A DNA stretch of 64,000 bases from Deltaproteobacteria bacterium (GTDB lineage Bacteria; Lernaellota; Lernaellaia; JACKCT01). The translations under genes were made by a program, and so were the position numbers. The stretch spans positions 15,897 through 79,896 of the forward strand of contig JADLEX010000094.1 in the NCBI GenBank assembly GCA_020845895.1, given 5' to 3'. Of this stretch, positions 21,671 through 59,591 are shown piece by piece; the stretch's first letter is position 1, and every line of letters begins with the position of its first letter. Under the pieces are notes generated by a model. That model did not search any database and was not told where the DNA came from. It worked only from the letters and a program-made list of their open reading frames with translations.

Positions 21671-22236
21671 CGCGCCGCCGAGTCGTTTGGTCGCTCGCCG
21701 CGATGCTGATGCTCGCAGCCTTCATCGCGGGTGCGTTGGCGATGGCGATGGGGACCGGCCGATCGGCGACACCGACGGCGGATAGCGGCGTCGAGAGCGC
21801 GATCGTGGCGCGCGTGAACGGTGTGCCGATCACGATTGCCGAACTGGAGCGCGCGATGGCCGCACTTCGGGAATCGTCGCGTGGGAATAATTTCGCCGCG
21901 TGGCGCGCCCGTGTGCTGGATTCCCTCATCAACGCTGAACTGTTTCGGCAGGCTGCGCGAGCCCGCGATGGCGACGATACCGCGCCGCCGGAAGCCGTGC
22001 GCGACGCGATCGAAGACGCCCGGGCCGAGAGCTTCGCTCAACCCTCGAACGCAAAGGAAGCGGGCGTCGATTTGTCAGCCGGCCATTTCGTCGATCGGGA
22101 CGAATACAAGCGCGACCTGAGTGTCACGCGCGAAACGGCCCGCCGGTATCGCGAGCGTGTCGAGGCGCTGCGCCGGAGTGCAAACCTCGAGGTCGATGAG
22201 ACCGCTCTGGCAGCGGCGGGTATCCGTCCGAGATGA
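21667..22236 (+). CDS. SurA/PrsA N-terminal-domain chaperone-like protein without a parvulin domain
   Basis: TM/signal, then IVARVNGVPIT..EL, VLDSLINAELFRQAA, and C-terminal ERVEALRRSANLEV. Confidence 0.65.
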   Translation: MTRRRVVWSLAAMLMLAAFIAGALAMAMGTGRSATPTADSGVESAIVARVNGVPITIAELERAMAALRESSRGNNFAAWRARVLDSLINAELFRQAARARDGDDTAPPEAVRDAIEDARAESFAQPSNAKEAGVDLSAGHFVDRDEYKRDLSVTRETARRYRERVEALRRSANLEVDETALAAAGIRPR

Positions 22237-40043: not shown

Positions 40044-40925
40044 ATGAAGGTGGCGGTGACGGGGGCGGCGGGATTTCTGGGCTCGCACGTCGCGGACGTG
40101 CTGGAAAAAGACGGTTTCGAGGTCGTGCGTCTCGACAAGGACGCCGACGCCGCGCGCCGCATCGTCGCGGCCGATCTGCTCTCGCCGGACGCGCTGAAAG
40201 CGGCGCTCGGCGGTGTCGAGGGCGTCTGCCATTTTGCGGCGGTCGGAGACGTTTATCTCGCGTTCGAGAATCCTCCGCTCGCGGCCACGATCAATGCCAC
40301 GGGCACCGCGAACATGCTCGAAGCGGCGAAGGCCGTCGGTGTCAAGAAGTTCGTCTACATCTCCACGTGGGAAGTTTACGGCGAGCCCGAGTATCAGCCG
40401 ATGGATGAGAAGCACCCGTGCCGGCCCGATCATCCCTACAACATCACCAAGCTCGCGGGGGAACATCTGGCGATGGCGTACGACCGGCTCAAGGGCGTGC
40501 CCGCGGTCGCGCTGCGCATCGGCACCGCCTTCGGCACCCGCATGCGCTCCAATTCGGTCTTCTCGATCTTCATCCGCAAGGGCATGAAGGGCGAGCCGAT
40601 CACGATCAAGGGCACGGGCGAACAGGGCCGCGAGTTCGTGCACGCCTTCGATATCGGCCGCGCGTGTGCGCTCGTGCTGCGCTCCGACCTGCGCGGCGAG
40701 GTTTTCAACATCACCGGCACCGAGTTCGTGTCGATCAAACGTCTGGCCGAGCTCGTGAGCGCGAAGTTCCCGACCGAGATCAAATTCGAAGAGGCCCGGG
40801 CGGGAGACATCGCGCCGGCCAAGGTCTCGACCGAAAAGGCGCGCAAGCTGCTCGGCTGGCAGCCCGAGGTGGCGTTCGAGCAGGGGCTCGCCGGGATCAT
40901 CGAGGAAGCGATCGCCAAAGCGTGA
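40044..40925 (+). CDS. NAD-dependent epimerase/dehydratase
   Basis: VTGAAGFLG, YNITK (YxxxK), GEQGREFVH. Confidence 0.92.
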   Translation: MKVAVTGAAGFLGSHVADVLEKDGFEVVRLDKDADAARRIVAADLLSPDALKAALGGVEGVCHFAAVGDVYLAFENPPLAATINATGTANMLEAAKAVGVKKFVYISTWEVYGEPEYQPMDEKHPCRPDHPYNITKLAGEHLAMAYDRLKGVPAVALRIGTAFGTRMRSNSVFSIFIRKGMKGEPITIKGTGEQGREFVHAFDIGRACALVLRSDLRGEVFNITGTEFVSIKRLAELVSAKFPTEIKFEEARAGDIAPAKVSTEKARKLLGWQPEVAFEQGLAGIIEEAIAKA

Positions 40926-52301: not shown

Positions 52302-53012
52302 ATGGAGACGCCGGGAGAGATGGAGAAGACGCACACCGACAGCGCTTACGAGCGGGAACTGCACGACCTGCGCGAGACACTGCTGCGCATGGCGGGGCTT
52401 TGCGAGGAGATGATCGCCGACGCGATCCGCTCCATCGTCGAGCGCAATTCCGAACTCGCGCGGGAGACCATTGAGCGAGACTTCGAGGTCAATCGCGCCG
52501 AGGTGCAGGTGGACGAACTCGTCTTCCTGGTCCTCGCCAAGCGCCAGCCGGTCGCGAAGGACCTGCGTTTCACGACGCAGGCCATCAAGATGGCCAACGA
52601 TCTCGAGCGAATCGGCGACCTCGCGGTGAATATCTGCGAGCGCGCGCTCTTGCTCAATCTCGAGCCGCAGCTCAAGCCGTATCAGGACATTCCGAAGATG
52701 GCCGATATCGTCATGTCCATGGTGCGCGAGTCGATCGACGCCTTCGTGAAAGAAGACGCCGACCTCGCGGAGCAGATCATGGAGCGCGACGATGAGGTCG
52801 ACGACCTCTACCATGTCATCATCCGCGATCTGCTGGCGATCATGCTCAAGAATCCGGACGCGGTGGAACGCGGGATTCACATCCAGTCGATCGCGAAGTT
52901 TCTGGAGCGCATGGCCGACCACAGCACGAACCTATGCGAGCAGGTCGTGTTTCTGGTCAAGGGCAAGGACGTGCGTCAGATCGACGGGCTCGAAAAGGTC
53001 CGCAAGGGTTAG
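52302..53012 (+). CDS. phoU: Phosphate signalling protein PhoU
   Basis: RQPVAKDLR, DLERIGDLAVNI, LERMADHSTN; start 52302 or 52320. Confidence 0.95.
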   Translation: METPGEMEKTHTDSAYERELHDLRETLLRMAGLCEEMIADAIRSIVERNSELARETIERDFEVNRAEVQVDELVFLVLAKRQPVAKDLRFTTQAIKMANDLERIGDLAVNICERALLLNLEPQLKPYQDIPKMADIVMSMVRESIDAFVKEDADLAEQIMERDDEVDDLYHVIIRDLLAIMLKNPDAVERGIHIQSIAKFLERMADHSTNLCEQVVFLVKGKDVRQIDGLEKVRKG

Positions 53013-54199
53013 AGTTTACCCATTCTCGCAGGCGTCGCGATCCGTCCGATGTGCAGGCGCACCCTCACGCCGCCGTGCAGCATGGGGAAGGCGGCGTCGT
53101 AGCGCAGCCGCATCGCCTTCCACATGGCTTCGTCGGCGGTGAGCACGCCGAAGCGCCAACCGACGAAGCGCTCGCGCAAAACGTCGCCCGCCTTGGAATA
53201 GAGTGTTCCGAGCGAACCCGGCGAACCGACGCGACTACCAAAGGGCGGGTTGAAGGAGACGAGTCCCGGCTCGCGCGGGGGCGACAGGCGGTGGATCGGC
53301 ACGTGTCGTACCTCCACTTGCGAGGCGAGCCCGGCGCGGTCGAGATTGCCATGGGCGGCGGCGGCGGCCGACGCGTTCGCGTCCGCGCCGACGATGGGGG
53401 CGCGAAGCATATCCCGCGCGTTCGCCACGGCTTCTTCGCGCAGACTCGACCAGAGCTTCGCGTCGAAGTCCGCGAAGTCCATGAACGCGAAATCCCGATC
53501 GGCGCCCGGGGCGCGACGAAGCGCCCACAGAGCCGCTTCGAGCACCAGCGTGCCCGCACCGCACATGGGATCAACGAAAGGCTCGGCCGGATCGAACCCC
53601 GCATACCGCAGCATCGCCGCGGCCATGGTCTCACGCAGGGGTGCGAGGGCGGTTTCGCGCCGATGCCCGCGCCGGTGGAGCAGATCGCCCGAGGTGTCGA
53701 GCGAGATCGTGCAGGTGTTCTGGTCGAACCGCGCGAGGACGAGTACCGGCGCGCGACCGGGCTTGGGTTCTCCCAAACGCTCGCCGATGGTGTCCGAAAC
53801 GACGCTTTCGATCTTCTTGCGGATGTTCAGCTTGGACCCGTGGCTCGCGGCACGCACTTCGATGGGTGTGCCCGGAGCCAGCCAATCGACCCACGGAATG
53901 CGCCGGACCTTGCGCGCGAGTTCGGGAAACGACATCGCGACGAACTCGCCGACACGCATGAGCACACGTCCCGCGGTGCGCAGCCACAGATTCGCGCGAT
54001 AGAGGTCGCGCGACGTGCCGAGGAACTCGACCCCGCCGTGCACGGCGCGCAGCGGCTCGACGCCGATTTCGCCCATTTCGTCGTACAATGCCGGCTCGAT
54101 GCCCGGCGCGCACATCGCGAACAGGTCGAATCGGCGCTCACCCTGCGGGCGAACACCGGTGGGTTGCGAATTGTTGACGCGCCGGGGATTCGAGGGCAT
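53009..54199 (-). CDS. THUMP-domain SAM-dependent RNA methyltransferase (RlmL/TrmG10-like)
   Basis: ANLWLRTAGRV, LHRRGHR...APLRETMAAAML, DPMCGAGT, NPPFG. Confidence 0.87.
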   Translation of the reverse strand: MPSNPRRVNNSQPTGVRPQGERRFDLFAMCAPGIEPALYDEMGEIGVEPLRAVHGGVEFLGTSRDLYRANLWLRTAGRVLMRVGEFVAMSFPELARKVRRIPWVDWLAPGTPIEVRAASHGSKLNIRKKIESVVSDTIGERLGEPKPGRAPVLVLARFDQNTCTISLDTSGDLLHRRGHRRETALAPLRETMAAAMLRYAGFDPAEPFVDPMCGAGTLVLEAALWALRRAPGADRDFAFMDFADFDAKLWSSLREEAVANARDMLRAPIVGADANASAAAAAHGNLDRAGLASQVEVRHVPIHRLSPPREPGLVSFNPPFGSRVGSPGSLGTLYSKAGDVLRERFVGWRFGVLTADEAMWKAMRLRYDAAFPMLHGGVRVRLHIGRIATPARMGKL

Positions 54200-54225
54200 G
54201 AAAGGGCGCCTGCCGAGGAAAATGA

Positions 54226-56220
54226 ATGGACCGATATCGACTGATCGACACCTATACGCCGAGGGGCGACCAGCCACAAGCCATCGCGGAGCTGGTTGAG
54301 GGCGTCGGGCGCGGCGAGAAGCACCAGGTACTGTTGGGCGTGACGGGCAGCGGGAAAACGCTCACGGTCGCGAACGTCATCGCGCAAAGCGGCCGGCCCG
54401 CGCTGGTACTGGCGCACAACAAGACCCTCGCCGCCCAACTCTTCTCCGAGTTTCGGGAGCTCTTTCCCGACAACGCGGTGGAGTATTTCGTCAGCTATTA
54501 CGACTATTACCAGCCCGAGGCGTATATCCCACGCTCGGATACCTACATCGAAAAAGACAGCTCGGTGAACGAGCGCATCGACCGGCTGCGTCACTCCGCC
54601 ACACGATCGCTGCTGACGCGCCGCGACGTCATCATCGTGGCGTCGGTCTCGTGCATCTACGGCCTCGGCAGCCCGCACGAATACAACAAGATGCTCGTGG
54701 TCGTGAACAAGGGCGACCGCATGGACCGCGACCAGCTCATGCGCCGTCTAATCGAGATGCAGTACACGCGCAACGACATCGACTTTTTTCGCGGCACGTT
54801 TCGCGCGCGGGGCGATGTGCTCGAGATCTTTCCCGCCTACGAAGACGAAAAGGCGATCCGCATCGAGTTTTTCGACGAGGACGTGGAACGCATCGCCGAG
54901 ATCGACCCGCTGCGCGGCAAGGTGATCCGCGACCTTCCCCGCATCGGGATATTTCCAAACAGCCACTACGTCGCCGACCGCCCGACCATCGAGCGAGCCA
55001 TCGCGGATATCCGCGCGGAGCTCAAGGAACGCTGCGAGCAGCTCCTGTCGCTGGGCAAGCTGCTGGAGGAACAACGCCTGCGGGAGAAGACGCTCTACGA
55101 CATCGAAATGCTCGCGCAGCTCGGCTACTGCTCGGGCGTCGAAAACTACAGCCGCCACCTCGATGGCCGCGAGGCCGGCTCGCCGCCGTGGACGCTCCTC
55201 GATTACTTCCCGTCCGATTTTCTGACGTTCATCGACGAGTCGCATCAGACCGTTCCGCAGCTCAACGCCATGTACAACGGCGATCGCTCGCGCAAGACCG
55301 TGCTGGTGGAATACGGCTTCCGCCTGCCGTCGGCGCTCGACAATCGTCCGCTGCGTTTCGAGGAAATCCAGCAGCGATTCGGTCAGATCGTGTATGTCTC
55401 GGCGACGCCCGCCGCGTGGGAGCTCGAGAAGGCGGGCGGAGTGGTGGTGGAGCAGATCATCCGTCCGACGGGGCTGATGGACCCTCGCGTCGAGGTCCGG
55501 CCCGCGGGAAATCAGGTGGACGACCTGCTCGACGAGATCAAAGCCCGCATCGACAAGAACGAGCGCGTGCTCGTGACGACGTTGACCAAGCGGATGGCCG
55601 AGGATCTGACGACCTACTATCAGGATCTCGGGCTGCCCGTCCGCTACCTGCACAGGGAGATCGACACGCTCGAACGTGTCGCGATTCTGCGCGATCTGCG
55701 CCTCGGCGAATTCGCGGTGCTCGTCGGCATCAACCTGCTGCGCGAGGGCCTCGACTTGCCCGAGGTCTCGCTCGTCGCGATCCTCGACGCCGACAAGGAA
55801 GGGTTTCTGCGCTCCACGACGAGCCTCCTGCAGACTATCGGCCGTGCCGCGCGCAACGTGAACGGCACGGTGATCCTCTATGCGGATCGCATGACGGCCA
55901 GCATGAGCACGGCGCTTGACGAGACCAATCGTCGCCGCGAGACGCAGCGCCGGTACAACACGGACAACGGCATCACGCCCGAGTCGATCGTGAAGGGCGT
56001 CTCGAACGCGCTGCTGGCGATCTACGACAAGGACTACGTGACCGTGCCGACGCTCAGGCCCGAGGACGACGACCAGATCGTGCCTGCGCACATTCCGATG
56101 ATGGTCGAATCGCTGCGCCGCCAGATGAAAGCGGCGGCGAAGAGCCTCGACTTTGAGCGCGCGGCCGAGTTGCGCGATCAGATCAAGCGGCTGGAGGAGC
56201 GCGAGATCGTCGGGCTCTAA
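54226..56220 (+). CDS. uvrB: Excinuclease ABC subunit B
   Basis: [44 protein letters not shown]-terminal [12 protein letters not shown]. Confidence 0.98.
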
Positions 56221-56250
56221 ATCTCACTTCCGGTCCTATCACTCCGCCTA

Positions 56251-56285
56251 TTGCCTTCTCGGCCACATATAGATATATTGCTATA
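56251..56285 (+). promoter_or_regulatory. Sigma-70 promoter with an overlapping ArsR-type operator
   Basis: TTGCCT(56251)-N17-TATATT(56274); inverted repeat TATAG-N8-CTATA (56268-85) spans the -10. Confidence 0.65.
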
Positions 56286-56297
56286 CAAGAGGTGGTC

Positions 56298-56633
56298 ATG
56301 GCGACCGACATGCTTCCCCAGTTCGACTTCGCGCCCTTTACGAACCGCCAGTGCGACGGCATCGCCGAGCTGCTCAAGGCGGTGGGGCACCCGGTGCGTC
56401 TTCGTGTGATCGACACGCTCGCGCGCGGTGAGATCTGCGTGGGCGATCTGGCGCTGGCGATCGGCGAGAAACAGGCGATCGTGTCGCAGCAGCTCAAGAT
56501 CCTGCGCATGGTGGGGCTCGTGAAGACCGAGCGGCGGGCTGGCAAGGCGTTCTACCGGCTCAACAACCAACACCTCTACGACCTGCTTTCGTGCATGCAC
56601 CGATGCGCGTGTTCGCAGTTTCCGGAGGAGTGA
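56298..56633 (+). CDS. ArsR/SmtB-family transcriptional repressor, Cys-rich
   Basis: KAVGHPVRL, EICVGDL, VSQQLKILR..GLV..ER.G...YRL, C-terminal SCMHRCAC. Confidence 0.9.
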   Translation: MATDMLPQFDFAPFTNRQCDGIAELLKAVGHPVRLRVIDTLARGEICVGDLALAIGEKQAIVSQQLKILRMVGLVKTERRAGKAFYRLNNQHLYDLLSCMHRCACSQFPEE

Positions 56634-56640
56634 GAAACCG

Positions 56641-56826
56641 ATGTCCGTGAACGACCTGTGGATTGTGGGCTTCCTCGTCTTCTGGATTCTGCTCCAGACG
56701 GTGATTCTGCCCAAACTGGGCGTGCCCACCTGAGCGAGCAACGCCTGTCGTCTGGATGACGGCAAAAAGCCCAAAGCGCGCGAATCCGAAAACGTCGAAA
56801 ACGCCCCCGGCCCGGAGGGAGGGTGA
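56641..56826 (+). CDS. Putative membrane-anchored small selenoprotein (61 aa, Sec at codon 31)
   Basis: MSVNDLWIVGFLVFWILLQTVILPKLGVPT-UGA(56731)-ASNACRLDDGKKPKARESENVENAPGPEGG-stop; hairpin 12 nt after the UGA; readthrough stop lies 3 nt before the next ATG. Confidence 0.7.
56746..56764 (+). other. Putative bacterial SECIS element 1
   Basis: UGUCGUC-[UGGAU]-GACGGCA (7 bp, one G:U) starting 12 nt after the UGA; G in the apical loop. Confidence 0.62.
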
Positions 56827-56829
56827 GTC

Positions 56830-57033
56830 ATGCCGATTTACGTCTATCGTTGCCGCGTCTGCGGCGAACAGTTCGATAAGCTCGTTTCGATCGGGGCCGC
56901 GAGCCAGCCCCAGACCTGCCCGCAATGCGGCGCGTTCGACGCGCAGAAGCAGATCGCCGCGCCCAGCGCGGTGCCGTCCGCGAAAGGCGGCGGATGCTCC
57001 TCGCCCGCGGGCGGCGGATTCACCTGAGGTTGA
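56830..57033 (+). CDS. FmdB-family zinc-ribbon protein, probably a selenoprotein ending ...GGGFT-U-G (otherwise stops at 57027)
   Basis: [12 protein letters not shown]...CPQCG zinc ribbon; [22 protein letters not shown]; hairpin 12 nt after the first TGA. Confidence 0.75.
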
Positions 57034-57039
57034 GGGGTG

Positions 57040-57056
57040 GGCCGCCGTGTGCGGCC
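57040..57056 (+). other. Putative bacterial SECIS element 2 (alternatively a terminator-like hairpin between convergent genes)
   Basis: GGCCGC-[CGUGU]-GCGGCC, 12 nt after UGA 57025-27; no U-tract on either strand. Confidence 0.5.
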
Positions 57057-57060
57057 GGAT

Positions 57061-58530
57061 TCACTTCTTCGGGTATTCGTCGACGATGATGCTGACGAGG
57101 TTGCGCGCCGAGACCGCCTCGCCTTCCATGCCGAGCCCGGGCAGAACCGCCTTGCCTGTGTAAAAGACGGACTTGTGCGGCGTGCGGTTGTGGAGCAGGG
57201 CGACGCCGAGTTTGTCGTCGTCGATGTTCTGCGACCATGCCTCGGCCCGCTCGATGCGATACAGCTCGTAACTTTCTTTCTTCGCGACGAAATCCGTGAA
57301 GTCGTCGAGAAACGGCATCAGTTCGCGCAGTGCGGCGTGAATGCGTTCGCAGAGCATGTCCGCTGTGCGCTCTTCCATCACACCGTTTTGCGGGCGGATC
57401 TTGATGCGGGCCGCGAGCAGGCGCTTGCCGATCGGCGCGAGGGCCTCGTCGTCCGGCGCGGAGAGGCTGATCATGATGAGGTTGTCGTCGATCAGTTCGT
57501 GCCGGGGGTCCTGAACGAGAATGACGTTCGGCCCCATCCCAACCGGCACCACATTCGCGTCGATGCCGACGTAAAGCACGAAATCGTGCCGGCCGGGGGG
57601 AGGCAGCTCAAGCTTTTCCTTGAAGTCCGACTTCAGGTGCTTGGGCGACCACGCCTTGAAGAACTCTTCCGGGTTGTCGCAGACGGCAATCGCCTTCGTC
57701 TTGATCGGTTCCTTCTGGTCGGCGAACTTGATCTCGGTGTACTTGCCGAACTCGATGTGCTCGATGGCCGGCGTGCGGTGGCACACGCCCCGATACGCCG
57801 AGATGCGCTCGCGGTAGAGCGTTTCGAGAACCTTGATGCCGCCTTCGACCTGGAAGATGCCGTTGTTGGTGAGTCCGAGCAGGTTCGCGGCGTAAGCCAG
57901 GTTCGGAGCGTCGGGATATACCGGCGATAGATACTGCACCTGACCGTCTACAAACGTCCGCGCCTCGGGCGACAGTTCGTAGCGGTCCAGGAACTCGCCG
58001 TAATCCGTGCGGATCGCCTCTTTGTAGAGGTCCGAGACGTTCGCGAGCGCTTTCTTCGCGGCGCGTCCCTCGCCCCAGGTGGACGGTGGATAGACCACGT
58101 CGTTGACGAAGAACCCGCGGATGACCTGCGCGTAGCGGTCGACGTCGCTGATGAGCGAGACGACCTTGCCCGACTCCTTGGGAAATTCAAGCGAGACGGT
58201 GCGGAACAGCTCGTCGCGCGACTGCGGGAGATCGACCCGGCGCGCGGGCGTGACGATCTGAAAACCGGGCTCCGCCATCAGAAAGCGTTTCTTGTCGAGG
58301 AACGGAATGCCGAGCTCGGTGAAGATTTCGGAAAAAATCTGGCCCTTGCCGAAACCGAAGAACATGCCGGGAAAACGGCGAAGTCGATACTCACCGATTC
58401 GTTTCACATGCGCCTGCGCCTCGACGTCCGCGATCAGCACGTTGTACCCGCGCTTGACGAGCAACGCGCCCGCGATGAGCCCGGACAAGTCCGAGCCCAA
58501 AATCGTGACGTCGAAGAGCATCCCGATCAT
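57061..58530 (-). CDS. FAD/NAD(P)-binding oxidoreductase (phytoene-dehydrogenase-like fold)
   Basis: FDVTILGSDLSGLIAGALLVKRGYNVLIAD Rossmann start, FQVEGG, C-terminal PGLGMEG; TGATG overlap with purM. Confidence 0.7.
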   Translation of the reverse strand: MIGMLFDVTILGSDLSGLIAGALLVKRGYNVLIADVEAQAHVKRIGEYRLRRFPGMFFGFGKGQIFSEIFTELGIPFLDKKRFLMAEPGFQIVTPARRVDLPQSRDELFRTVSLEFPKESGKVVSLISDVDRYAQVIRGFFVNDVVYPPSTWGEGRAAKKALANVSDLYKEAIRTDYGEFLDRYELSPEARTFVDGQVQYLSPVYPDAPNLAYAANLLGLTNNGIFQVEGGIKVLETLYRERISAYRGVCHRTPAIEHIEFGKYTEIKFADQKEPIKTKAIAVCDNPEEFFKAWSPKHLKSDFKEKLELPPPGRHDFVLYVGIDANVVPVGMGPNVILVQDPRHELIDDNLIMISLSAPDDEALAPIGKRLLAARIKIRPQNGVMEERTADMLCERIHAALRELMPFLDDFTDFVAKKESYELYRIERAEAWSQNIDDDKLGVALLHNRTPHKSVFYTGKAVLPGLGMEGEAVSARNLVSIIVDEYPKK

Positions 58531-59591
58531 CAGCCGACCACCTCGACGGCGGGGGATTCCCGGTCCTCGCGCGCGACGATTTCGCCGATCACCCACGCGC
58601 GTTCCTGCAGGCCCGAAAGCCGGATCAGGATGTTCTCGACCTCATCCTCCGGGCAGACGATCGCGAGCCCGATGCCCATGTTGAACGTGCGCCACATCTC
58701 GGCGTCGTCGATGCCGCCCGCGCGGCGAAGCGTCTCGAAGACACCCGGCGCTTCCCACGATCCGCGCTGGAAACGCACGGCCGCGCGCTCGGGTAGGATG
58801 CGCGGCACATTTTCGAGCAGACCGCCGCCCGTGATGTGCGCGACGCCCTTGATCGCGAAATTGCGCGTCAGGTTGCGCAGCGTTTTCGCATAGATGCGCG
58901 TGGGCGTCAGCAGTTCTTCGCCGACGGTCCCGCGGAATCCTTCGATGCGGTCGTCGACTGTAAGCCCGAGCTGCTCAAAAACGATCTTGCGCGCCAGCGA
59001 ATAGCCGTTGGAGTGAAGGCCGGTGCTCGCCACGCCGATCACGCGGTCGCCTTCGGCGATGCCGCTGCCGTCGATCAGCACGTCGCGGTCCACCACGCCC
59101 ACGGCGAAACCCGCGAGGTCGAACTCCCCCGCCGGGTAGAAGTCGGGCATTTCCGCCGTTTCGCCTCCGACCAGCGCGCAGCCCGCTTCCTTGCACCCCT
59201 CGGCGATGCCCTTGATCACCGAGGCGGCGGCCTGCGGTTCGAGCTTGCCGCAGGCGAAATAGTCAAGGAAAAACAGCGGTTCCGCCCCGCAGGTGATCAC
59301 ATCGTTCACGCACATTGCCACGAGGTCGATGCCGACCGTGTCTAGGCGGCCCGTCATGAATGCGATCTTGAGCTTGGTGCCCACGCCGTCGGTGCCCGAG
59401 ACGAGCAGCGGATTTTTGTAATTCAGCGTATTCAGGGCGAAAAGCGACGCAAATCCGCCGATGTCGGCCTTGACCTCGGGCCGAAAGGTGGAACGCACAT
59501 AGGGCTTGATGAGGCGCACCAACTCGTTTCCGGCGTCGATATCGACCCCGGCATCGCGATAAGACCGAAACACCTTGGTATTCAATACAAT
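58530..59591 (-). CDS. purM: Phosphoribosylformylglycinamidine cyclo-ligase (AIR synthetase)
   Basis: SYRDAGVDIDAG, SGTDGVGTKL, IDLVAMCVND, GGETAEMP, GLHSNGYSL, AHITGGG, TFNMGIG; start uncertain. Confidence 0.97.
   Translation of the reverse strand: MVLNTKVFRSYRDAGVDIDAGNELVRLIKPYVRSTFRPEVKADIGGFASLFALNTLNYKNPLLVSGTDGVGTKLKIAFMTGRLDTVGIDLVAMCVNDVITCGAEPLFFLDYFACGKLEPQAAASVIKGIAEGCKEAGCALVGGETAEMPDFYPAGEFDLAGFAVGVVDRDVLIDGSGIAEGDRVIGVASTGLHSNGYSLARKIVFEQLGLTVDDRIEGFRGTVGEELLTPTRIYAKTLRNLTRNFAIKGVAHITGGGLLENVPRILPERAAVRFQRGSWEAPGVFETLRRAGGIDDAEMWRTFNMGIGLAIVCPEDEVENILIRLSGLQERAWVIGEIVAREDRESPAVEVVG

Follow-up and report, generated by a model that had tools for sequence, protein, structure and literature searches.

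A predicted penultimate Sec in the flexible tail of an FmdB-type zinc-ribbon protein, encoded beside a predicted membrane selenoprotein

Sec-containing forms of the FmdB family have been predicted from Global Ocean Sampling (GOS) data, with the Sec placed in the CxxC of the zinc ribbon (Zhang and Gladyshev 2008, PMC2398784); only 2 such sequences were reported, with 807 Cys homologues counted (PMC2398784), and elsewhere the form is given as U/CxxU (PMC9312934) or as UxxU, with 2 Sec residues (PMC13188914). Sec near the C-terminus is known in bacteria from the “star” families, namely, KCU-star (NF033934), UXX-star (NF041114 and NF041211), GUXX-star (NF041212), and UXPK-star (NF047649) (PMC13188914). 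In the SECIS of Escherichia coli, a distance of 11 nt separates the UGA from the upper stem-loop, whose loop contains G23 and U24 (PMC8659212). Here we examine a 64-kb stretch of DNA (the window) in which the annotated stop codon of an FmdB gene, UGA 57025-57027, is very likely decoded as Sec, giving a 67-residue protein that would be served by a SECIS in the 3' UTR and is encoded in a three-gene cluster.

This protein and the GOS selenoproteins belong to the same family (TIGR02605/COG2331 zinc ribbon), and both are predicted bacterial selenoproteins; however, the GOS Sec replaces a ribbon Cys, whereas here it would be penultimate in a disordered tail, and the GOS form numbered only 2 sequences, whereas the tail form makes up the majority of the closest homologues that we examined. 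The initial annotation had mentioned Sec forms of FmdB from selenoproteome surveys; these have been predicted with Sec in a CxxU/UxxU ribbon, which is another form than the tail Sec. With the “star” families the protein would share a Sec one to three residues from the C-terminus, truncation by automatic annotation, and a SECIS in the 3' UTR, where it must lie when the Sec is so close to the end; nevertheless, the sequences are unrelated, and both the FmdB domain (zinc ribbon) and the motif are different. Among eukaryotic proteins, thioredoxin reductase (-G-C-U-G), SELENOS, and SELENOK have a flexible Gly-rich tail in which Sec is the penultimate or antepenultimate residue, along with an upstream Cys able to form a selenenylsulfide. 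They are unrelated proteins that depend on the eukaryotic SECIS/SBP2 machinery, and the likeness is no more than an analogy.

The features of the FmdB gene are the following.

56830..57033, plus strand: predicted FmdB-type zinc-ribbon selenoprotein, 67 aa (ORF, profile matches, AlphaFold2)
57025..57027, plus strand: UGA predicted to be read as Sec (U66), annotated as a stop (TGA in tail-class homologues and in the lineage)
57028..57033, plus strand: Gly codon GGU (G67) and putative true stop UGA (synonymous-only change in the lineage)
57034..57039, plus strand: 6-nt spacer GGGGTG (length kept, sequence free in the lineage)
57040..57056, plus strand: candidate SECIS hairpin, wholly in the 3' UTR, GGCCGC / CGUGU / GCGGCC (sequence, RNAfold, family comparison)

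The ORF runs for 65 codons from the ATG at 56830 up to the first TGA (56830-57024), and its last five codons, GGC GGC GGA TTC ACC, encode G-G-G-F-T. Its product is matched by TIGR02605 (E = 2e-16, 59.8 bits against a cutoff of 31.3) and by PF09723 (Zn_ribbon_8; E = 8e-16, 58.2 bits against a cutoff of 34.4). Members of the FmdB family are recognized by two CxxC motifs that closely follow the initiator Met, are separated by about 17-19 residues, and precede a degenerate low-complexity tail; here C8-x2-C11 and C30-x2-C33 supply the four Cys residues of a zinc ribbon spanning residues 1-41 and are followed by a tail rich in A, S, and G. All four ribbon Cys residues are encoded by TGC codons, and the UGA is located in the tail, which carries C56 and would end in G-G-G-F-T-U-G if the UGA is recoded. 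AlphaFold2 places three beta strands within residues 3-41 (pLDDT about 67-76), and in its model the tail is disordered (pLDDT about 50, without secondary structure). The likeness to the mammalian thioredoxin reductase tail that the initial annotation had drawn holds for a Gly-rich tail with an upstream Cys and fails in its particulars, as the tail is not GCUG but ends in -G-F-T-U-G, and its Cys lies 10 positions upstream (C56...U66), whereas that of thioredoxin reductase adjoins the Sec. The Cys-Sec spacing of SELENOS is nearer to these 10 positions than that of thioredoxin reductase. A profile search found no oxidoreductase domain in the FmdB protein, and the resemblance of its tail to thioredoxin reductase would be functional at most.

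The initial annotation had described TGA-GGT-TGA followed by a hairpin, and the sequence agrees with this base for base: TGA 57025-57027, GGT 57028-57030, and TGA 57031-57033 precede the spacer and a hairpin whose stem arms, at 57040-57045 (GGCCGC) and 57051-57056 (GCGGCC), enclose the loop CGTGT (57046-57050). RNAfold likewise recovers the hairpin on folding of this region (-26.4 kcal/mol for 54 nt, z = -2.7). The hairpin begins 12 nt after the first TGA and 6 nt after the second and has G at loop position 2 and U at position 3; numbered from the U of the UGA, the loop reads C22 G23 U24 G25 U26, which places G23/U24 as they have been reported in the SECIS of E. coli (PMC8659212). Like the fdhF/fdnG elements of E. 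coli, it lies directly 3' of the UGA with its upper stem 11-12 nt on and presents G23 and U24 in the apical loop, but it lacks the bulged U17, the window stem being a perfect 6-bp GC helix, and it is untranslated rather than in-frame. To our knowledge, a bulged U17 is not demanded by general bacterial SECIS descriptors. In Rfam, a search of the locus at E <= 10 returned no SECIS family and one sub-threshold match, to an unrelated sRNA, and the whole window at gathering thresholds returned only a tRNA-Asp.

Taking these elements together, we infer that Sec is inserted in vivo at UGA 57025-57027 (U66), to be followed by Gly (G67) and termination at UGA 57031-57033. The recoding would be driven by the SelB-type SECIS, which stands wholly within the 3' UTR at 12 nt from the UGA, and the second UGA would not be recoded because, at only 6 nt from the stem, it is probably too close. 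C56 and U66 would most likely be paired, forming a reversible selenenylsulfide or else binding a soft metal or metalloid.

The strongest competitor of Sec insertion, which we nonetheless regard as improbable, is that UGA 57025 is a real stop, that the protein ends in ...GGGFT, that the hairpin is a terminator or an mRNA-stabilizing stem-loop which the two convergent genes share, and that the second TGA is due to chance or serves as a back-up. The local arrangement offers some ground for this: the two genes that flank the hairpin are indeed convergent, with the minus-strand stop at 57061-57063 only 4 nt away from it, and chance produces a stop-X-stop arrangement often enough. As neither a second stop one codon past the first nor a hairpin between convergent genes is unusual, the window motif by itself is within the reach of chance, and it is the comparative data that lift it above this. 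A scan of all TGAs in the window, on either strand, for SECIS-like hairpins matched 16 sites, among which only 57025 comes after a high-GC3 coding frame (GC3 0.85). On the minus strand, another TGA with a hairpin (22077) has a weak coding context. Two same-frame TGA junctions in the window, at 40923 and 26243, were considered as candidates and rejected as ordinary adjacent genes. Against the terminator reading, the hairpin has no T run, and a simple scan of 56100-57300 for intrinsic terminators found 0 sites.

The comparison that bears most directly on the real-stop reading covers 153 homologous loci, and it supports the proposal of the initial annotation that readthrough yields a penultimate Sec on a Gly-rich tail with an upstream Cys. 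A tail class was set from protein sequence alone, as proteins of <=90 aa with the last Cys 2-11 residues before an end in F[TSGRK], GG, TG, KG, ST, or PT, and the stop codon test is therefore non-circular. The first stop is TGA in 34/34 tail-class homologues versus 58/111 other FmdB homologues, which use all three stop codons (Fisher p = 1.8e-8), and a second stop follows within <=4 codons in 32/34 of the tail class versus 10/58 of the others (Fisher p = 1e-13). Across 38 loci, all with TGA as the first stop, the second stop is TGA in 18, TAG in 14, and TAA in 6, a contrast that the real-stop reading leaves unexplained, and the extension after the UGA comprises 1-7 codons. In 35 of these 38 loci the extension opens with Ala (13), Gly (13), or Ser (9), every GCN and every GGN codon being in use, and in L087-L094 the sequence U-S-[IL]-R is kept despite the synonymous changes AGC/AGT, ATC/ATT, TTG/CTT, and CGC/CGT. 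Such wobble-only variation around conserved residues indicates translation past the UGA, and it speaks against a real stop. The resulting tail motif can be written as C-x(2-10)-[GF]-[TSG]-U-[AGS].

The hairpin behaves in the same manner. A stem of 5-9 bp starting 11-15 nt after the TGA is present at 26/28 candidate loci versus 5/52 controls (p = 7e-14), and all 25 aligned sequences have a G at loop position 2. Stem pairing amounts to 83.5%, versus 52.5% in shuffled and 35-46% in slid alignments, percentages that are biased towards structure as the hairpins were anchored by hand for the covariation count; the stem covariation score is 0.818 versus 0.223, with 0/500 shuffles reaching 0.818. Loop position 3 falls at nt 22-29 across the family, with a mode of 24, and at exactly 24 in the window. 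A distance from the UGA that is fixed across phyla, together with an invariant loop G, is again at odds with a stem-loop that merely separates convergent genes.

At the protein level, the real-stop reading can point to the fact that every public annotation ends such proteins at F[TS]. Ends in F[TSGRK] account for 79/146 short homologues among the best of 1172 matches in a representative library and for 106/119 of the best of 3139 profile matches; 0/396 retrieved proteins carry U. An alignment for F-[ST]-C-G or F-[ST]-U-G ends, suggested by the initial annotation, gave a divided answer: the F[TS] ends all stop at TGA, but no homologue ending in F[TS]-C-x was found among the 146 short proteins from the best of 1172 matches or among the best 119 of 3139, which also favors a real stop. 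The case that the initial annotation had named as a refutation, FT/FS ends lacking both a Cys equivalent and a conserved double TGA, thus seemed at first to be at hand. We nonetheless rejected F[TS] as a natural C-terminus, since the DNA shows a universal TGA and a nearby second stop of any of the three types, here 1-4 codons on, along with a SECIS-type hairpin at a fixed distance. To judge from these features, the F[TS] ends are annotation truncations, and most of the closest public FmdB entries appear to be truncated selenoproteins.

A Cys equivalent of the UGA does exist in two proteins, P0201 and L030, which align a Cys with the UGA of L020, a relative outside the window lineage. P0201 is about 65% identical to the L020 protein in a gap-free alignment of equal length, and L030 is about 61% identical (the two ranging over 61-66%). 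The codon at the position of the L020 TGA is TGC in P0201, and the tails read GCGPGCGCVH in P0201, GCGPACRCVH in L030, and GCGPGFT-U-AR in L020, the first two being of another, Cys/His-rich type and the aligned region being of low complexity.

The window lineage, comprising four distinct sequences (the window, L001, L086, and L159; identity to the window of 85-89%, measured for L001 and L086), shows the same pattern on a smaller scale. TGA-GGY-TGA is kept throughout, with the first TGA invariant (4/4) and the codon between the stops changing only synonymously (GGT/GGC/GGT/GGC), and the 6 nt after the second stop are fully variable in sequence (GGGGTG, CCGGGA, TCCGCC, and GATTCC) and fixed in length; the single synonymous site is the sole direct sign of translation beyond the UGA within this lineage. 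The hairpin is kept while its 3' flank varies, and in L159 a 13-nt insertion shifts the stop of the convergent gene away from it. The hairpin thus holds its position relative to the FmdB UGA rather than to the opposite gene, contrary to what a structure belonging to the convergent pair would show.

The FmdB gene is the last of the cluster, in which it would be preceded by an ArsR/SmtB-type regulator and a membrane selenoprotein, as follows.

56251..56279, plus strand: sigma-70-like promoter match TTGCCT-17-TATATT ahead of the ArsR gene (consensus scan)
56298..56633, plus strand: ArsR/SmtB-family metalloregulator, 111 aa from ATG, first gene of the cluster (NF033788, PF01022)
56641..56826, plus strand: predicted small single-pass membrane selenoprotein, 61 aa, MSVNDLWIVGFLVFWILLQTVILPKLGVPT-U-ASNAC-RLDDGKK... 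(conserved TGA, Cys-form homologues)
56731..56733, plus strand: UGA predicted to be read as Sec (U31) in the membrane protein (conserved UGA, Cys-form homologues)
56746..56764, plus strand: candidate SECIS hairpin inside the membrane-protein coding region, UGUCGUC/GACGGCA, loop UGGAU (sequence)

The promoter match, 1 where 0.2 were expected in the consensus scan, is at most a possible operon promoter. The regulator is matched by NF033788 (E = 1.1e-22, 79.6 bits against a cutoff of 55) and also by PF01022 (HTH_5); a GTG start at 56292 is open as well. The same ArsR gene precedes the selenoprotein pair in L001, L086, and L159 too, and in L045 an ArsR gene is found upstream of the FmdB gene.

The membrane protein is annotated as 30 aa, with the real stop at TGA 56824-56826, 3 nt before the FmdB ATG. 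Its UGA at 56731-56733 is followed after 12 nt by a hairpin with a 7-bp stem (56746-56752 with 56758-56764) and a 5-nt loop, so the spacing and loop size that the initial annotation had likened to those of the upstream gene are the same in both. This hairpin is kept in the lineage with one stem change, U.G to C-G, and a Ser residue encoded beyond the TGA has switched codon family (AGC to TCG). The TGA with a Cys five residues later (GVPT-U-x4-C) is kept in L016, L019, L034, L049, and L061 and in the window lineage, while 65/73 full-length database homologues have C-x4-C at the Sec site; a further 47 matches are truncated forms of <40 aa (the listed ones have 29 aa), of which most end in GVPT. 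By these alignments the membrane protein is a bona fide Sec/Cys family, independent of FmdB. Its gene adjoins the FmdB-Sec gene in six lineages versus 0 control loci; the Cys-form genes L162-L165 are not adjacent to FmdB genes, and an all-against-all BLAST of the neighbours of FmdB-Sec genes recovered no conserved ones beyond those that are lineage specific. We propose that the two selenoproteins probably work together. The U-x4-C of the membrane protein would lie just past its helix, with the Lys/Asp/Glu-rich tail that follows taken to be cytoplasmic.

A second alternative, less probable still than the real stop, grants the insertion of Sec but regards the tail as the core of a modified or cleaved ribosomal peptide, with the zinc ribbon as its leader or recognition domain. 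The TIGR02605 family description likens low-complexity Cys-containing tails to bacteriocin precursors, which is a point for it. A “selenobacteriocin” family with an SGUG motif is also on record (PMC13188914). On the other hand, no modification enzyme, protease, or exporter occurs as a conserved neighbour, the sole recurrent partner being the small membrane selenoprotein, and the FmdB-Sec gene, besides being widespread, occurs in one copy and in surroundings of the housekeeping type (uvrB and purM, for example). Least probable of all is that the UGA is read as Trp, Cys, or Arg, by a near-cognate tRNA or a lineage-specific reassignment, with the hairpin as a generic readthrough stimulator: Trp in two and Gly in one of the membrane-protein homologues at the Sec/Cys position do indicate that other residues or sequencing errors occur, but the loop geometry (G23/U24) and the 11-15-nt spacing are those of SelB binding, TGA is an ordinary stop of most neighbouring genes in the window, and Cys, the usual replacement of Sec, occupies the homologous sites.

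Returning to Sec as the favored reading, tRNA-Sec, selA, selB, and selD were not found within the 64-kb window, nor were SelA, SelB, or SelD motifs in any of its frames, and we infer the capacity of the host for Sec insertion from the neighbouring selenoprotein gene alone. A search of NCBIfam with 13 FmdB-Sec sequences, U being written as C (E <= 1 for nine and E <= 0.1 for four), gave no match among these 13 to the “star” models NF033934, NF041114, NF041211, NF041212, and NF047649, and more generally the NCBIfam selenoprotein and “star” models have no match to the FmdB-Sec or the membrane-protein family. The tail-Sec form of FmdB and the membrane-protein family are new in that they stand outside both NCBIfam 20.0 and the 119-family inventory of May 2026, the families of Haft and Tolstoy 2025 (mSystems) being compared via the review table and the NCBIfam models alone.

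The FmdB-Sec form and the second family beside it are found in Acidobacteriota, Chloroflexota, Desulfobacterota, Nitrospirota, KSB1, Bacteroidota, and Bacillota. Thus, in at least seven bacterial phyla a feature of the FmdB family has very probably been overlooked, leaving many entries short by two to five residues, and the selenoproteome gains a widespread Sec form together with a second family. The case also exposes a blind spot, as selenoprotein finders that use a coding extension or a Cys alignment would miss a Sec 2-5 residues from a low-complexity end. The parallel with the tails of thioredoxin reductase, SELENOS, and SELENOK suggests that a terminal Sec on a flexible arm came into use convergently. 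More speculatively, the two selenoproteins might form a membrane-anchored Sec/Cys relay of reducing equivalents or of a soft metal or metalloid, under an ArsR-type sensor, and FmdB proteins in general might be tail-mediated thiol/selenol carriers, of which the Cys/His-rich non-Sec tails would be the sulfur version. The conserved Cys...Sec tail and its membrane selenoprotein partner would, in any event, provide a concrete redox or metal hypothesis for the FmdB proteins.

The FmdB gene starts at ATG 56830 and stays open for 65 codons, the last of which (GGC GGC GGA TTC ACC) encode G-G-G-F-T; there follow TGA (57025-57027), GGT, a second TGA (57031-57033), six bases (GGGGTG) and a perfect hairpin (GGCCGC/CGUGU/GCGGCC), exactly as described in the initial annotation, which had proposed a penultimate selenocysteine (Sec) and a matching SECIS element. 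RNAfold recovers the hairpin (-26.4 kcal/mol for 54 nt, z = -2.7). The protein is a clear FmdB/Zn_ribbon_8 member by its profile matches (TIGR02605, 59.8 bits versus a cutoff of 31.3; PF09723, 58.2 bits), with CxxC motifs at residues 8-11 and 30-33 and a tail Cys nine residues before the end of the 65-aa form. The AlphaFold2 model (116 homologues) has three moderately confident beta strands between residues 3 and 41 and leaves the tail from residue 42 without secondary structure (pLDDT ~50). Taken alone, the window motif is not above chance, because a stop-X-stop arrangement is common and so is a hairpin between convergent genes. The features of the region are as follows.

56641-56826, + strand: putative membrane selenoprotein gene; 30-codon open reading frame, TGA 56731, 30 further codons, stop 56824-56826
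56830-57033, + strand: FmdB-Sec gene; 67 aa with UGA 57025 read as Sec
57040-57056: hairpin 3' of the FmdB gene
57061-58596, - strand: convergent gene, its stop at 57061, 4 nt beyond the hairpin

At the protein level, ...GFT gives the impression of being the natural C-terminus of the family. A phmmer search of 1.84 billion representatives, with the 65-aa protein as query, returned 1172 matches (E < 1e-3); among the 146 short top matches (best of the 1172), an F[TSGRK] end is seen in 79, of which 73 have a Cys 5-11 residues from the end like the window protein, and none ends in F[TS]-C-x. Likewise, the ends inspected in the best 119 of 3139 FmdB profile matches are F[TSGR] in 106 cases, and none carries a Cys extension beyond the tail end. 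The initial annotation had held that FT or FS ends with neither a Cys equivalent nor a conserved double TGA would refute its proposal; FT- or FS-type ends are what the proteins present, but the impression is overturned by the DNA past the annotated stops, which we read in 80 loci of GTDB representative genomes and 73 metagenome loci. To avoid circularity, homologues were classed by protein sequence alone, the tail class comprising those of ≤90 aa with the last Cys 2-11 residues before the end and a terminal F[TSGRK], GG, TG, KG, ST or PT. The stop is TGA in 34/34 tail-class loci versus 58/111 other FmdB homologues (Fisher p = 1.8e-8), and, in TGA-ending loci, a second stop lies ≤4 codons on in 32/34 versus 10/58 (Fisher p = 1e-13). 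All 38 distinct candidate loci have TGA as the first stop, the second being TGA (18), TAG (14) or TAA (6); the residue following TGA is Ala in 13, Gly in 13 and Ser in 9, with all four GCN and all four GGN codons represented. A soil-metagenome group (L087-L094) maintains ...CAP[ST]GG(G)-TGA-Ser-[Ile/Leu]-Arg-stop with synonymous changes past the TGA (AGC/AGT, ATC/ATT, TTG/CTT, CGC/CGT), which is, at the level of codons, the signature of a translated extension and not of untranslated post-stop sequence.

Several homologous loci show unusual tails. A metagenomic homologue (L095:1501-1700) ends ...GGGGGYIRPT-TGA-GSGC-stop, with a CGUGA hairpin loop; its sole tail Cys follows the putative Sec instead of preceding it. 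L092, a close relative of the CAPTGG-U-SIR group, shows 97% identity across 61 residues before running on to 95 aa with an unrelated tail, probably through a frameshift or assembly error just 5' of the tail-Cys codon. In a deltaproteobacterial MAG (L017:2690-2830), a 126-nt in-frame insertion in the FmdB tail directly before the TGA, with a TTTACC repeat on its flanks and hairpins inside, yields the original ...RFT, 42 extra codons, ...GFT-TGA-GGT-TAA and then the SECIS. The insertion resembles a small mobile element or repeat that the disordered tail can accommodate.

Under identical criteria, a 5-9 bp stem beginning 11-15 nt past the TGA is present in 26/28 candidates versus 5/52 controls (p = 7e-14). 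The stems vary freely among lineages (GGCCGC, GCGGGGC, CACCGGU, UGCAGCC, GAGAGC, GGGGGU, GCGGAUA), and the loops (GGUCC, GGUUC, CGUGC, CGUGG, CGGGU and similar) have an invariant G at position 2 in an ungapped alignment of 25 sequences. The eight stem pairs are 83.5% paired, versus 52.5% when shuffled and 35-46% with the partner column slid, percentages that lean towards structure because the anchoring was the analyst's choice, a bias from which the case-control count is free; the covariation score is 0.818 versus 0.223, reached by 0/500 shuffles. When nucleotides are numbered from the U of UGA, the third loop position lies between nt 22 and 29 (most often at 24), and the window loop reads C22 G23 U24 G25 U26. 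In the Escherichia coli SECIS, 11 nt separate the upper stem-loop from the UGA, the apical loop carries G23/U24 and U17 is bulged (PMC8659212); the window element agrees save for the bulged U17, which is absent. By position, loop and covariation, as judged from sequence, the FmdB hairpin is a SECIS element, although Rfam models give no match at the FmdB locus.

An unlikely alternative is that the hairpin is a terminator common to the two convergent genes, between whose stops it lies. A terminator scan at the FmdB locus turned up no stem with a T run after it, and a shared terminator has no need to hold register with the FmdB UGA. The window and three related loci (L001, L086 and L159; FmdB identity to the window 89% for L001 and 85% for L086) offer four distinct sequences in which TGA-GGY-TGA is constant, the synonymous third Gly base excepted. 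The next six bases all differ (GGGGTG, CCGGGA, TCCGCC, GATTCC) and are always six; the hairpin is retained, varying in one outer stem base and loop position 5, while its 3' flank is variable, a 13-nt insertion in L159 separating it from the convergent gene's stop. The constant spacing and this insertion indicate that the hairpin keeps its register to the FmdB UGA rather than to the gene on the opposite strand. Together, the TGA, second-stop, extension and hairpin comparisons support the proposed tail Sec and SECIS, and UGA 57025 very probably encodes Sec.

The convergent gene, next to FmdB throughout the lineage, encodes a ~490-510-aa FAD/NAD-binding protein with only distant similarity to the carotenoid desaturase CrtD (68 bits versus a cutoff of 550) and no assigned family. 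ArsR, the membrane selenoprotein, FmdB-Sec and this 489-aa oxidoreductase-like gene form a conserved block. A comparison of L001:1-2804 with window 53009-56633 and L159:1-2805 shows that its upstream neighbors differ: the window and L159 have RlmL and UvrB, L001 has gltX and a TauE/SafE-type exporter; hence, the block seems to move as a unit.

The like spacing claimed for the upstream gene is borne out: TGA 56731-56733 is followed by 12 nt and a 7-bp stem with a 5-nt loop (UGGAU), an in-frame SECIS within the gene's own coding region. The gene stops 3 nt ahead of the FmdB ATG, which is preceded by GGAGG, and its 61-aa product crosses the membrane once (...ILPKLGVPT-U-ASNAC-RLDDGKKPK...). Both the TGA and the Cys five residues on are kept in L016, L019, L034, L049, L061 and the window lineage (including L086 and L159), with a Ser codon family switch (AGC to TCG) past the TGA in the lineage; the gene adjoins FmdB-Sec in every such locus and is absent from all control loci. 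A profile search found 832 relatives; among the 120 listed, ...G[VI]PT-C-MSGA-C occurs in 65 of 73 full-length members, and 47 are truncated (<40 aa; 29 aa where given), mostly ending GVPT. This is a textbook Sec/Cys family, which appears to be undescribed; Pfam and NCBIfam models give no match and the family has no name. None of the Cys-form genes looked up adjoins an FmdB gene. No tRNA-Sec or sel genes lie within the 64-kb window, and this same-operon selenoprotein with its 12-nt spacing is the best available evidence for UGA-as-Sec decoding in this organism. Elsewhere, at 22077 (- strand), open frames of 83 and 157 codons (GC3 0.73) flank a TGA that has a weak SECIS-like hairpin; since ORFs overlap there on both strands, this is likely to be a chance occurrence.

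Thin but real evidence for Cys counterparts comes from low-complexity sequence in relatives of L020 (Thermoanaerobaculia), outside the window lineage. The L020 protein ends GCGPGFT-TGA-AR; its database homologue P0201, 65% identical without gaps (both 70 residues), ends GCGPGCGCVH with TGC aligned to the TGA, and its gene has a long terminator-like hairpin directly 3' of the stop. L030 (61% identity to L020) ends GCGPACRCVH and likewise has Cys where L020 has the TGA. Cys/His-rich ends (...CACH, ...CGCH, ...CSSCH) with Cys 2-4 residues from the terminus are found in many non-Sec FmdB homologues and may be sulfur counterparts of the Cys...Sec tail. Such types recur, along with ...GMCGMN(FN) and ...MCGLD, in L012, L036, L039, L044, L048, L057, L060, L070, L071, L078, L081, L083 and others, GMCGMN repeatedly in Acidobacteriota and Planctomycetota.

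We propose that, most likely, with the ribosome positioned at UGA 57025, a SelB-Sec-tRNA complex would bind the 3'-UTR hairpin; Sec66 would be inserted, Gly67 added and the chain released at UGA 57031, this second UGA presumably being too close to the stem (6 nt) for recoding. Untranslated bacterial SECIS elements do function, both for recombinant thioredoxin reductase in E. coli and in the natural "star" families. The mature protein would be a zinc ribbon with a flexible arm bearing C56 and U66, which, by likeness to TrxR, SELENOS and SELENOK, might form a selenenylsulfide or bind soft metals. The membrane selenoprotein's U-x4-C could lie at the cytoplasmic face, and this partner, with the operon's ArsR/SmtB regulator (NF033788, 79.6 bits), would suggest a role in metal, metalloid or sulfur stress.

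The prediction of FmdB selenoproteins dates from 2008 and drew on two GOS reads, in which Sec lies in the CxxC of the zinc ribbon (PMC2398784); later reviews list U/CxxU and UxxU. The initial annotation mentioned Sec forms of FmdB from surveys, but those place Sec in the ribbon and not the tail; the window protein falls outside that definition since all four ribbon Cys are TGC codons. Neither the tail-Sec form nor the GVPT-U family is among the 119 prokaryotic selenoprotein families inventoried in May 2026, and none of 396 database proteins retrieved contains a U residue. The C-terminal "star" families (KCU, UXX, GUXX, UXPK) share the working mode of the tail-Sec form; NCBIfam "star" models match none of 13 FmdB-Sec sequences, the families of Haft and Tolstoy (2025) being compared through a review table and these models. 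Carriers include Chloroflexota, Acidobacteriota, Desulfobacterota, Nitrospirota, KSB1, Bacteroidota and Bacillota. The mechanism is not new and falls within the bacterial SECIS-dependent selenoproteins; tail-Sec FmdB is a widespread and apparently undescribed Sec form with a partner selenoprotein.
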